A DNA stretch of 64,000 bases from an uncultured candidate division Zixibacteria bacterium (GTDB lineage: Bacteria; Zixibacteria; MSB-5A5; GN15; FEB-12): NCBI GenBank assembly GCA_963735035.1, contig CAVTJJ010000006.1:128001-192000 (forward strand), written 5' to 3'. The notes under the pieces are model-generated. The model was not told the DNA's origin. It did no database searches and saw only the letters and a program-made list of their open reading frames with translations. Below are positions 36,024 to 41,775 of the stretch, one piece after another. Numbering within the stretch: position 1 is the first letter of the stretch; every line of letters starts with the position of its first letter. Position numbers and translations under genes: made by a program.

Positions 36024-38339
36024 ATGGCCGCTCCGCCAAAGCTCAGGTCTGATCTCATATCGTCGCCTTCGGTAGTCGACGGCGTCACCGTGTTTACGGT
36101 GAAAGACCCGATCGGGGGGAAATACTTCCGCCTCCGTGAGCCCGAGCACTGGCTGATTCACCAGTTTGACGGCAATAGTACGCCCGATGAAATCGCTGCC
36201 AGATTCGGCGAGAAATTCGGGCTTAAGATCAGTGGCTCTGATGTGGCTCAATTCTCAGCCGCACTTGACAACCTGTTCTTTCTCGAGAACACTCGATCAG
36301 AACAGATCCTCAGCCGCTCAGGGACGCGCATCGAAGCCAGACGACCTCTGTGGCAGCGCATTCTATATTTGCGGCTGAAAGCATTCAAGCCAGGGAAGGG
36401 GCTTGATTGGCTCACGCGGCTCTATCGACCGTTTCATCGGCCCTTCTGGTTCGTCGTGCAGGGACTTGTCATACTCGCCGGGTTGATCGTGCTGTTCGCC
36501 AATCTGCCGTCATTCGAAGTCAGTCTTAGCGCACTGTGGAATCTCGGATCAATCGGGCTCTTGATCCTGTCGATGTTCATACTGGTCTCGCTGCACGAGT
36601 TCGCTCATGCCGTGACCTGTCGTGTATATGGGGGAGAGGTCCGCGAAATCGGCTTCCTGCTTCTCTATTTCCAACCCTGCTTCTATTGCGATCTGTCCGA
36701 TGCCTGGCTGTTCCCCAAGAAGTCACAACGGCTGGCAGTGTCATTTGCGGGTCCGTTCTTCCAACTGGTCCTGCTGGCGGTTTCGGTGATTGTCTGGCGT
36801 CTGACGGTGCCAGGCGTGTTCGTGAGTCAACTTGCGTGGATGCTGGTTACGGTGAACTGGATCAACTTCCTGTTTAATTTCAACCCGCTAATCAAGCTGG
36901 ACGGGTATTATCTGCTCTCTGATTGGGTGGAAATTCCGAACCTGCGTCAGAAAGCATTTTCGTATCTGGGCAATGCTTTGAAGCGGCGTTTGCTTGGTTG
37001 GCCGATTGAGTCACTGGCTGTAACGGCGCGCCAGCGGCGGATTTTCGTCACATACGGGCTGACCGCACTGATATACTCAGTGTTACTTCTGGGCTACATG
37101 TTCACATTGGTGGCGAAGTTCCTGATGGCTGAGATCGGCCCTGCCGGTCCGGCCTTGTTAGTTCTGGTCATATTATTTATATTGCGATCAAGGTTGCGGA
37201 ATCTCGCACAGGGTATTATCAGTCATGTTAAGTATATGAAGAGACTGCTGAAACAGCCTTTGAAACTCGCCGGATATCTGGTCGTCCTCGCGGTCGTCCT
37301 GGTCATAGGACTGGCCCTGCCGCTGCCACATCGGGTTTCGGGCGAAGTGCTCGTGCGCCCCGTCGCGATGTTCACGGTCAGGTTGAACGAATATGGAGTG
37401 CTGGAGAAGATTTCCCGCCGGGGTGGAGATGTTCCCACCACCAAGACTGATATTCTGCAATTGGCCACTACAGACATGGCCGCGCTGCAGGTCGTGCCGT
37501 TGGTACGAGACGGCGAATCAGTGACGGCCGGTGACACGATTGCCGCGGTAACGTCCAATCAGATCACGCGGGATATCAATGCCGGCCAGGCCGAGTTGGA
37601 ACGTCTTCAAAATGAACTGGCCCTCCTTAAGGCACTGCCCAAGAAGCAGGCGATGGACGAGGCCAAAGCCAGCATCAAGTCCGCCAAAGCCACCCTGGCT
37701 CAGAACAAGCGTGAACGCGATCGGATGAAGTCGCTGGTAGACAGCAAATTAGAGGCGCGTGAGCGGCTTGAGTCGATCCAGTCCCAGGTGGAAGTCGCCG
37801 AAGCCGAAGTCACTCGATGTCAATCGGCGCTGAATCTCCTTCAAGCTCCTCCTCGGCCCGAAGAAGAAGATGTAGTCCTCAGCCAGATTCAGAAGCAGCA
37901 GGCGCAGCTGGACTTTCTCGTCCAGCAGGCCGCGGCCAGCCGGATCGAATCTCCTATCAGCGGGGTCGTCCGGGTGGCGGGCAAGAGTGGAGCCGTGGTT
38001 GAAGTGGCAACCTGCGATCCGGTGGAACTGCTCCTGCCGGTGTCAGACTTCGACCTGCCGCTCGTGACACTGGGGCAGACAGTCCAGGTGAAGGTTCGCT
38101 CATTCCCCAATCAAGTATTTTCCGGCACGGTGGTTCGGATCCCGAAGACTTCCGGGACATCTGATGCAGAGGCGGGCGGCGTCTTTCAGATATCCGTGCT
38201 TGTGGCGAACCCGGATGGACTGCTCCGTGATGGGATGAGCGGTTATGCCAAGATCGAAGCGGGGAAGATATCCGCGTTTGCGTGGGCGTTCCGGAAGGTG
38301 TACCAGAACCTCCGGGTTGAGTTCTGGTCATGGTGGTAG
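36024..38339 (+). CDS. Fusion of PqqD/RRE-like N-terminal domain, M50 site-2 metallopeptidase and HlyD-type membrane fusion protein
   Basis: aa1-90 beta-beta-beta/helical PqqD-like pattern (VKDP..GKYFRL...FDG..T.DEI); HEFAH, AGP, FNFNPLIKLDGYY; lipoyl halves, coiled coil, SPISG.V, LRDGMSGYAKI. Confidence 0.85.
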   Translation: MAAPPKLRSDLISSPSVVDGVTVFTVKDPIGGKYFRLREPEHWLIHQFDGNSTPDEIAARFGEKFGLKISGSDVAQFSAALDNLFFLENTRSEQILSRSGTRIEARRPLWQRILYLRLKAFKPGKGLDWLTRLYRPFHRPFWFVVQGLVILAGLIVLFANLPSFEVSLSALWNLGSIGLLILSMFILVSLHEFAHAVTCRVYGGEVREIGFLLLYFQPCFYCDLSDAWLFPKKSQRLAVSFAGPFFQLVLLAVSVIVWRLTVPGVFVSQLAWMLVTVNWINFLFNFNPLIKLDGYYLLSDWVEIPNLRQKAFSYLGNALKRRLLGWPIESLAVTARQRRIFVTYGLTALIYSVLLLGYMFTLVAKFLMAEIGPAGPALLVLVILFILRSRLRNLAQGIISHVKYMKRLLKQPLKLAGYLVVLAVVLVIGLALPLPHRVSGEVLVRPVAMFTVRLNEYGVLEKISRRGGDVPTTKTDILQLATTDMAALQVVPLVRDGESVTAGDTIAAVTSNQITRDINAGQAELERLQNELALLKALPKKQAMDEAKASIKSAKATLAQNKRERDRMKSLVDSKLEARERLESIQSQVEVAEAEVTRCQSALNLLQAPPRPEEEDVVLSQIQKQQAQLDFLVQQAAASRIESPISGVVRVAGKSGAVVEVATCDPVELLLPVSDFDLPLVTLGQTVQVKVRSFPNQVFSGTVVRIPKTSGTSDAEAGGVFQISVLVANPDGLLRDGMSGYAKIEAGKISAFAWAFRKVYQNLRVEFWSWW

Positions 38340-41775: not shown

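Follow-up and report, generated by a model that had tools for sequence, protein, structure and literature searches.

A 25-aa peptide gene beside an RRE-M50-HlyD fusion gene and a kinase-TPR gene in Zixibacteria: a candidate peptide signalling module

Introduction

Cytoplasmic-TPR peptide signalling is textbook knowledge only for Firmicutes and their phages, and diderm bacteria are taught as users of small molecules. Does a bacterium with two membranes also make, process and read a short peptide? This question is raised by a locus at positions 36,024 to 41,775 of a 64,000-nucleotide stretch of DNA from an uncultured Zixibacteria bacterium (GCA_963735035.1, contig CAVTJJ010000006.1, positions 128,001 to 192,000), which is called the window here. 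Three genes lie together in the locus: one for a fusion of an RRE domain, an M50 protease and an HlyD-type adaptor, a small open reading frame (sORF) for a 25-aa peptide, and one for a protein kinase with a TPR domain. In the present study, these genes were analysed by computation and compared with related loci. We found that the sORF has the marks of a real gene, that its leader is related to the leaders cut by the daptide peptidases, that peptide and protease occur and are missing together over the phylum, and that the peptide gene stays beside a TPR protein even where the protease gene lies elsewhere. On this evidence, the chances are about even in our estimate that a three-part peptide signalling module (precursor, protease-adaptor and TPR transducer) is conserved across Zixibacteria.

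Results

The first gene and its parts are as follows.

36024 to 38339, plus strand: RRE-M50-HlyD fusion gene, 771 aa, single copy in the genome
36024 to 36308, plus strand: cytoplasmic RRE/PqqD-like domain, aa 1-95, putative leader binder (AlphaFold2 fold, Foldseek, weak Pfam PqqD match)
36396 to 37208, plus strand: M50 site-2-protease core, aa ~125-395, with six membrane helices (Pfam, NCBIfam, motifs)
37257 to 38336, plus strand: basic cytoplasmic loop, anchor helix and periplasmic HlyD-type adaptor, aa 434-771 (Pfam, NCBIfam, hydropathy and charge, AlphaFold2)

The initial annotation had read this gene as one polypeptide that joins a PqqD/RRE-like domain, an intact M50 protease and an HlyD adaptor, and all three were recovered. 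The segments HEFAH (aa 191-195) and NPLIKLDG (aa 287-294) supply the HExxH and NxxPxxxxDG motifs of M50 proteases, and all 44 aligned homologues keep the residues H191, E192, H195, N287, P288, D293 and G294 unchanged. The Pfam family PF02163 (Peptidase_M50) matched at 31.1 bits (cutoff 27.2) and PF13437 (HlyD_3) at 25.2 bits (cutoff 22.2), together with HlyD_D23, and the NCBIfam models HlyD (E 1e-18) and RND_mfp (E 4e-17) covered aa ~494-749. Over the RRE and protease parts (aa 26-387), the NCBIfam model of the daptide intramembrane metalloprotease, NF041824, matched with an E-value of 1.5e-66 and 225.1 bits, below its equivalog cutoff of 300 bits, and we class this part by its profile match as a homologue and not an equivalog of the daptide leader peptidase. 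A further NCBIfam match was found with YydH/LiaK (E 1.2e-9), and type_I_hlyD and NHLM_micro_HlyD matched weakly.

An RRE fold at the N-terminus, on which the proposal was said beforehand to depend, is supported by the predicted structure. The AlphaFold2 (AF2) model of aa 1-120, made from a 35-row alignment (pLDDT 83.5), consists of three strands followed by three helices (E12-18, E21-27, E34-38, H39-45, H54-65 and H71-83). When this model was compared with the PDB by Foldseek, the top seven matches, each with prob 1.00, were all RRE/PqqD domains with target TM-scores of 0.62-0.70; they were headed by TbiB1 with its leader (E 4.6e-3) and included another lasso B1 protein and PqqD. The identity of the domain rests on this fold comparison because a profile search of PDB sequences with the RRE alignment gave nothing significant (best E 0.034, unrelated proteins). 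In addition, the Pfam PqqD model (PF05402) scored 13 bits (E 0.13) on the window's own domain, below the gathering cutoff of 23.4, and matched at E <= 1 in 26 of 35 homologues, with a best E-value of 1.1e-4. The full-length model of the fusion has a mean pLDDT of 81. Hydropathy, charge and AF2 together give a layout of cytoplasmic RRE, six membrane helices, basic loop (396-414), anchor helix (412-433) and periplasmic adaptor, and the AF2 model shows the anchor helix at aa 412-431 and, in the adaptor, four long helices (aa 512-637, the coiled-coil region) between beta domains.

The next gene of the locus is the sORF, with these elements around it.

38463 to 38477, no strand: palindrome GGGAAAAGACTTCCC, ~60 nt upstream of the -35 element (found by eye, no statistical test)
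38539 to 38567, plus strand: sigma70-like promoter of the sORF, TTGACG, 17 nt spacer, TAAATT (sequence, 16-locus alignment)
38643 to 38651, plus strand: Shine-Dalgarno sequence AGGAGGTGA, 5 nt before the sORF start
38656 to 38733, plus strand: sORF, 25-aa precursor reading MADYKLTVEVLEARIAPMGFSLGGQ (conserved leader, codon pattern, promoter, Shine-Dalgarno sequence)
38656 to 38706, plus strand: leader MADYKLTVEVLEARIAP, 17 aa, with M1, Y4, L6, E9, L11, E12, A16 and P17 invariant in 24 sequences
38707 to 38733, plus strand: predicted core MGFSLGGQ and stop codon (cut site inferred from daptide homology)
38755 to 38788, no strand: terminator-like hairpin common to the convergent sORF and kinase-TPR genes, overlapping the kinase stop codon at 38770-38772

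An sORF of this length may be a chance reading frame, and several kinds of evidence were brought to bear on it. In the leader DNA of 22 distinct sequences, the entropy by codon position was 0.46, 0.44 and 1.45, and the codon differences were 1337 synonymous vs 882 nonsynonymous. The mean identity was 0.675 over the 42 nt of the leader vs 0.266 in the upstream DNA. Of 25 sORFs of the same class (type A), nearly all have a Shine-Dalgarno sequence 5-8 nt ahead of their start codon, and the -35 core TTGAC is invariant or nearly so in 16 aligned loci; a cTTGACa promoter was likewise found upstream of the sORF in six further loci. Because third-position variation, leader conservation and a conserved promoter with a Shine-Dalgarno sequence come together here, we regard the 25-aa ORF as a genuine gene. 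The earlier claims that it is expressed independently and has a hairpin in common with the kinase-TPR gene are supported, as promoter, Shine-Dalgarno sequence and terminator-like hairpin were all located. The strict leader motif occurs once in the six frames of the 3.6-Mb genome, and a peptide profile likewise gave one match. The initial annotation had named large proteins elsewhere as the substrates that would speak against it, and no sign of such proteins with the leader tag was seen in this genome.

Some further observations concern the DNA ahead of the sORF. A GGAAA-N-TTTCC element was seen by eye at the place equivalent to the palindrome in most of the 16 aligned loci, and the palindrome may be a site for a regulator of the peptide gene. 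Two small inverted repeats, GTGTGATC/GATCACAC (38580-38600) and CCCCTC/GAGGGG (38604-38621), lie in the 5' untranslated region, and in related loci a CCTCC/GGAGG-like hairpin, differing in sequence per locus, was noticed by eye ahead of the Shine-Dalgarno sequence. RNAalifold found no consensus pairs in the MAFFT-aligned 69 nt before the start codon of 16 loci, and an Rfam scan of 38200-38900 gave no family at E <= 1.

The daptide report (10.1101/2023.03.08.531785) describes clusters that came to light by way of an RRE at the N-terminus of a site-2 protease, and precursors with the common leader motif ELExMEAP; its alanine-scan numbering places Pro at -1, the leader ending in Ala-Pro. The leader tag of the present family, (V/E)LE-x-(R/K)-(I/V)-A-P, here LExRIAP, is related to that motif, and 24 sequences show no change in its L, E, A and P. 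From the homologous enzyme and the homologous tag together, a cut after Ala-Pro is therefore predicted, with MGFSLGGQ as the core. The earlier claim that the fusion binds the leader, cleaves it and leaves a core of about eight residues stood in part: RRE fold, homology to the daptide peptidase and the matching LE...AP tag agree with the predicted binding and cleavage. Type-A cores are 7-8 aa long and have the pattern x-G-x-S-x-G-G-Q. A few type-A precursors (L070, L072 and L066) extend past GGQ with Gly/Trp-rich residues, e.g. ...GGQNLWGGFGGG, which hints at a further site of processing or at a longer mature peptide in these lineages.

How widely the parts are kept was examined first around the fusion protein, by which 50 loci were collected (protease-anchored loci). 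As proposed earlier, the flanks of homologous fusions were scanned for leader-bearing short ORFs, and 30 of the 50 loci carry at least one ORF with the same leader; among the 20 without it, nine end <400 bp after the fusion gene. At the level of the phylum, a profile made from 24 peptides matched 168 of 201 sampled Zixibacteria genomes and 91 of 108 genera, mostly once per genome, and the RRE-M50 part matched 171 of the same 201 genomes. Both were found in 164 genomes and neither in 26, with peptide only in 4 and protease only in 7; related genomes are not independent samples in these counts. The four peptide-only genomes are all <=89% complete, and one of the seven protease-only cases is at a contig edge. 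Both are missing together from one family (f13, 0/4) and from the genera g9 (0/2) and g49 (0/2), and such joint absence in several genera and families suggests repeated joint loss.

The third gene is convergent with the sORF, and their stop codons are 36 nt apart.

38770 to 41775, minus strand: Hanks-type Ser/Thr kinase, linker and TPR/MalT-like TPR domain, 1001 aa, proposed peptide sensor (Pfam, linkage)

In this protein, Pkinase was matched at aa 16-263 (E 5e-32) and a TPR_12/MalT-like TPR domain at aa ~480-1001. The catalytic residues K39, E59, D130, N135 and D157 are invariant in 25 homologues, and the best NCBIfam and PDB matches are signalling kinases of the PknB/StkP type. There is no transmembrane-level segment, the maximum Kyte-Doolittle score over 19 residues being 1.42.

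Linkage of this gene to the peptide was followed in several sets of loci. By tblastn, it was found in 24 of the 50 protease-anchored loci, exactly the 24 that have a type-A sORF. In five of five genomes whose fusion gene has no adjoining sORF, a type-A-like sORF lies elsewhere and beside a TPR protein; four of these partners are kinase-TPR proteins (one with an AAA_16 STAND module), and one, on the same strand, is a TPR-Sigma54_activat-HTH_8 protein. When 20 further loci from 13 other families of the phylum were selected by the peptide alone, there were 16 convergent kinase-TPR genes, two TPR-sigma54 genes, one kinase-TPR gene 2.9 kb off and one locus with neither. Overall, a TPR, kinase or sigma54 partner adjoins the sORF in 67 of 75 peptide-hit loci, three of the 75 loci coming from genomes that were already represented, and among 40 peptide-anchored loci from at least 16 families, 37 have the TPR partner as a neighbour and 23 the protease gene. 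The synteny with kinase-TPR genes that had been suggested for checking thus proved tighter than proposed, and the pairing persists where the protease lies elsewhere. A constant TPR domain with a variable output domain is the pattern expected of a sensor or receptor. In the loci with a TPR-sigma54 partner, no sigma54 promoter was found ahead of the sORF, which has a sigma70-like cTTGACa promoter instead. Two of these loci (L068:10450-10743 and L083:8272-8592) have an ORF of ~100 aa without a Pfam match between the sORF and the activator gene. Complex prediction for the TPR part (aa 430-1001, 25 rows) with the 25-aa peptide (24 rows) gave ipSAE values of 0.01 and 0.02 and a mark of 0.32, for a partner shorter than the calibration set, and counts neither for nor against the pairing.

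Two close species, represented by loci L010 and L014, gave a further view of peptide and TPR domain. Their proteins are 96-99% identical in the flanking histidine kinase, 88-97% in the fusion and 84-93% in the kinase domain, with a drop to 31-68% over the C-terminal ~400 aa of the TPR protein. At the DNA level, this is an island of ~1.2 kb with 42-66% identity vs a background of 77-95%, and it starts beside the sORF. The sORF leaders differ in one base, which is synonymous, and the cores (VGISLGGQ vs IGLSQGGQ) in seven bases, all nonsynonymous. No island was seen with a third species, in whose core a single position is changed. In 57 pairs from within a genus, larger core differences go with a faster divergence of the TPR C-terminus relative to the kinase domain (Spearman -0.58), a trend that is confounded by overall divergence and shared ancestry and is not usable as a test.

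Other precursor classes were found with the same kind of leader. The loci L003-L005 (type B) have 4-7 tandem precursors with the same leader and 6-aa cores (S-K/R-Y/W/F-G-x-x, e.g. SKYGVD); their syntenic frame is the same and the kinase-TPR gene is missing. Two Aminicenantes-labelled loci (type C) have 3-4 identical 31-aa precursors on the strand opposite to the M50-HlyD gene, with a lysine-rich N-terminus, the tag LE.RIAP and the core TRAAIAMG. In a Gemmatimonadales locus, a BTAD-AAA_16 regulator stands with two sORFs that bear the leader, a GAF-GAF-HlyD protein, two Ser/Thr kinase genes and an M50-HlyD protein, of which the RRE part is apparently encoded in another frame. These arrays and loci are as follows.

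L003:8474-9514, L004:8462-10171 and L005:8488-9584: type-B arrays
L044:8314-8667 and L046:7837-8315: type-C arrays
L047:866-12164: Gemmatimonadales locus

The surroundings in the window were scanned with Pfam and NCBIfam over nine flanking genes. The following genes are used in the text below.

32435 to 34588: prolyl oligopeptidase (S9) gene, between the GAF-HisKA and DAO genes, upstream of the fusion
34664 to 35812: FAD oxidoreductase (DAO family) gene, upstream of the fusion
41794 to 43593, minus strand: GAF-PAS histidine kinase gene, 18 nt upstream of the kinase-TPR gene

No known RiPP (peptide made by the ribosome and modified after translation) tailoring enzyme and no PEARL, cyclase, lyase or LanC-type gene was found among the nine, and readings of the locus as a pearlin, lasso or lanthipeptide cluster were ruled out by the lack of such neighbours. 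Daptide tailoring genes of the MpaB/C/D/M type and ABC transporters were found neither in the nine flanking genes nor in seven related loci. The initial remark that no ABC ATPase, TolC or obvious tailoring enzyme is adjacent was borne out for the nine flanking genes. Elsewhere in the genome there are 17 OEP-domain matches to outer-membrane factor (OMF) genes, with no tie to the fusion protein, and four genes of OPT-family oligopeptide transporters. The prolyl oligopeptidase was considered as the enzyme that cuts after proline and was ruled out, since none of 50 related loci has it by tblastn; the gene looks like a lineage-specific insertion, and its cutting after proline is probably a coincidence. 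The DAO oxidoreductase was ruled out as a tailoring enzyme, since only 18 of 75 loci, all of them in closely related families, have it near the sORF.

The GAF-PAS histidine kinase is probably co-transcribed with the kinase-TPR gene. On the minus strand, 38770-49058 holds six genes of the same direction with gaps of 18-105 nt or overlaps, for a HAMP histidine kinase, an NtrC-type sigma54 regulator, an Omp85-family protein, a DUF4390 protein, the GAF-PAS histidine kinase and the kinase-TPR protein, and this is probably one long signalling and envelope operon that ends at the hairpin common with the sORF. At 31519-32292, a 257-aa protein with GAF-like and HisKA parts and no HATPase_c, an incomplete histidine kinase, is conserved in 13 related loci.

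Discussion

Starting from the domain identities, the reality of the gene, the leader homology, the co-occurrence and the linkage reported above, we infer leader binding, cutting, export, re-entry and sensing in the following steps. The sORF would be transcribed from its own promoter and give a 25-aa precursor of a 17-aa leader and an 8-aa core. The cytoplasmic RRE of the fusion would bind the leader (Y..L..E.LE.RIAP), and the fused M50 protease would cut after Ala-Pro and release MGFSLGGQ, as the homologous MpaP does with daptide precursors. Covalent linkage of the protease to an HlyD-type adaptor, which has a long coiled coil, makes it most likely that the core, once released, is passed outward, to the periplasm or to an outer-membrane channel. 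The mature peptide, back in the cytoplasm, would be recognised by the TPR domain at the C-terminus of the neighbouring soluble transducer, whose output is a Hanks kinase here and a sigma54 activator in some relatives. The topology fits this order, with a cytoplasmic RRE, a periplasmic adaptor and a kinase-TPR protein without a membrane segment. For the last step, gene linkage, the variable output domain and one divergence island point to the TPR domain as the putative sensor. With a cytoplasmic receptor and no Opp binding protein found, re-entry needs another route, and a loop of export and return would be possible but not of the Firmicute kind. The hand-over to a TolC channel without an ABC ATPase and the quorum-sensing-like circuit of the initial annotation are candidate steps only. 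In its full form the proposal is that Zixibacteria, and probably other diderm phyla, have an independently evolved counterpart of the RRNPP systems, with an unmodified pheromone of 7-8 residues, pump-less processing and export by an M50-HlyD protein, re-uptake, reading of the peptide on a TPR domain by STAND-like Hanks kinases or sigma54 activators, and pherotypes of core and TPR domain. We put this full form forward tentatively, as less likely than not; the three-part module is the reading that we prefer.

Several results weigh against the module. There is one clear divergence island only, and the trend over the 57 pairs adds no test to it. The cores are unusually conserved, with S-x-G-G (scored as S-x-G-[GDN]) kept in 58 of 69 cores across the phylum, and the gene is mostly single-copy, so that this family is less diverse than typical pheromone families. 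Export by an M50-adaptor fusion is a supposition, and the nine flanking genes hold no ABC ATPase, inner-membrane pump or TolC/OEP gene. The Opp-type binding protein (PF00496) had 0 matches in this 96.9%-complete genome, as compared with a control of 11 in 14 reference genomes. Loci L078, L082 and L106 have no adjoining TPR partner, nor have the three type-B and two type-C loci. Synteny by descent is also widespread, as 66 of 75 loci have the histidine kinase no further than 6.5 kb from the sORF. At the level of the domains, the NF041824 match covers profile positions 20-365 of 379 and falls short of the equivalog cutoff, and the Foldseek E-values of the RRE domain are ~5e-3, none being at E <= 0.001.

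The same facts allow other readings. The peptide may act within the cell that makes it, where an envelope-gated or sensing HlyD-like domain would let the M50 protease release the core and a TPR switch of the same cell would respond, without any signal from cell to cell. Site-2 proteases classically yield cytoplasmic products, the receptor is itself cytoplasmic, and neither an adjacent pump or ATPase nor an Opp binding protein was found; this is a phylum-wide, single-copy gene with a fairly conserved core, and the locus lies within an operon rich in envelope and signalling genes (Omp85, DUF4390, NtrC-type regulator, histidine kinases). However, every characterised HlyD-type adaptor with a long coiled coil that is known to us serves in export, four OPT transporters could re-import peptides, and a core/TPR island between close species is expected from lineage specificity and harder to explain for an internal messenger, which makes this an unlikely reading although a serious one. 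Another reading keeps the export and makes the peptide an effector, antimicrobial, surface-active or metal-binding, with the TPR kinase or activator merely as a cluster-situated regulator like the SARP/LAL-type STAND proteins. Type-B loci, with 4-7 tandem precursors, variable 6-aa cores and no TPR gene, would suit it, as would the 3-4 identical copies of type C and the BTAD-AAA_16 regulator beside the precursors of the Gemmatimonadales relative; the daptide relatives are secreted products. An unmodified Gly-rich 7-8-mer is nevertheless unlikely as an antimicrobial, no tailoring or immunity genes are conserved (18 of 75 loci have DAO near the sORF, and none of 50 has the prolyl oligopeptidase), the phylum carries the gene almost universally and in single copy, and a mere regulator is not expected to co-diverge with the peptide core. 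We consider an effector improbable here.

Two further readings concern the kinase-TPR gene itself. It might encode a tailoring enzyme that phosphorylates the core Ser, in the manner of the kinase domains of class III/IV lanthipeptide synthetases, while the TPR domain holds the leader. The Ser of S-x-G-[GDN] in 58 of 69 cores and the catalytic residues invariant in 25 of 25 homologues agree with that, and PF00069-type lanthipeptide dehydratases occur in some daptide clusters. Yet three of the 69 cores (L045, L049 and L066) have no Ser or Thr and keep an adjacent kinase-TPR gene, and three loci have a sigma54 AAA+ partner and no kinase. Because of such cores and partners, phosphorylation of the core cannot be the general function. 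In addition, only Pkinase and TPR families were found in 25 of 25 members, without a lyase or cyclase domain, the best matches are of the PknB/StkP type, and no lanthipeptide synthetase model of NCBIfam matched at E <= 0.1, so that we give this idea very little credit. It might also be that the adjacency of sORF and kinase-TPR gene is nothing but inherited gene order, and that the precursor and the protease are the only system. The block of purF ... DAO, fusion, sORF, kinase, histidine kinase, DUF4390 and Omp85 is indeed syntenic in many loci, and the related genomes are not independent samples. Against this, the pairing outlasts both the relocation of the protease gene and the replacement of the kinase by a sigma54 activator with the TPR domain retained, it holds over at least 16 families (37 of 40 peptide-anchored loci), and the loci that have type-B cores in an unchanged syntenic frame lack the kinase-TPR gene. 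Inherited order would be a highly improbable explanation of such a pattern. Thus, a signalling module of precursor, protease-adaptor and TPR transducer is the reading that we carry into the comparison with known systems.

Conclusion

The nearest known relatives of the processing pair are MpaA/DapA and MpaP/DapP of the daptides (Actinomycetota, Bacillota). Like them, the present locus has an N-terminal RRE on a site-2 protease, with NF041824 matched over the whole model though below its equivalog cutoff, and a short precursor gene beside the protease gene with a leader that ends in LE...AP, Pro being at -1 in the daptides and, by prediction, here. Unlike them, the protease carries an HlyD adaptor at its C-terminus, the host is a diderm and the constant partner is a TPR signalling protein. 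The core here consists of 7-8 hydrophilic, Gly-rich residues ending in Gln, whereas the daptide core is long and aliphatic with an invariant C-terminal Thr, a residue found at that place in 0 of 54 distinct cores. No homologues of MpaB, MpaC, MpaD or MpaM (DUF-RRE protein, alcohol dehydrogenase, aminotransferase, methyltransferase) and no ABC transporters were found in the neighbourhoods scanned. Because C-terminal Thr and tailoring genes are lacking, we do not class the locus as a daptide system, and we regard its processing pair, by homology, as related to MpaA/MpaP.

The RRNPP systems of Firmicutes (Rap, NprR, PlcR, PrgX, AimR) use a Sec-dependent propeptide, extracellular processing, re-import by Opp, and a helix-turn-helix or phosphatase output. 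They are alike in having a small propeptide gene beside a presumed cytoplasmic TPR receptor and a short mature signal (5-8 aa in RRNPP, predicted here), and in one case peptide core and receptor sensor diverge together here as well. The features used for this comparison are in part those given in PMC10075063. Here, in contrast, the precursor has an acidic RRE-type leader and no hydrophobic Sec signal peptide, processing by M50 is predicted, a Hanks kinase or a sigma54 AAA+ activator forms the output, the search for an Opp binding protein gave none, and the host is a diderm of the FCB group.

In leader-cleaving type I export, as in microcin V CvaAB-TolC and NHLP/Nif11 systems, a peptidase-containing ABC transporter (C39) works with an HlyD adaptor and TolC on a double-glycine leader. 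The diderm logic of leader removal at the inner membrane with an HlyD-family adaptor is similar, but here a metallo-M50 protease is joined to the adaptor, and there is neither a double-glycine leader nor an ATPase in the locus. Eep and EpeP/YydH are also M50 intramembrane proteases that mature a small secreted peptide, and EpeP, according to a review, probably cleaves and exports. An RRE, a fused adaptor and a TPR-kinase partner are absent from both; the substrates of Eep are signal peptides of lipoproteins, and epipeptides require a radical-SAM epimerase. The likeness to Eep drawn in the initial annotation is loose, as the precursor here is not a lipoprotein signal peptide.

About five in six sampled genomes of the phylum keep the peptide, its likely processing enzyme and its likely receptor, which makes this a testable candidate for peptide signalling across two membranes. 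The daptide type of RRE and M50 leader peptidase is extended from a Gram-positive tailoring pathway to a system of unmodified peptides, and the natural protease-adaptor fusion offers a model for asking if leader cleavage is coupled to ATPase-free transit of the envelope. The short leader tag with its single-protein processor is a possible tool for the release of small peptides. In the open full-text literature searched, a scope outside of which subscription journals and bioRxiv supplements lie, we found no description of an M50 leader peptidase-periplasmic adaptor fusion paired with TPR kinases or sigma54 activators. Overall, the locus appears to combine a daptide-like leader peptidase with the peptide/TPR logic of RRNPP systems, a combination that looks undescribed in diderms.

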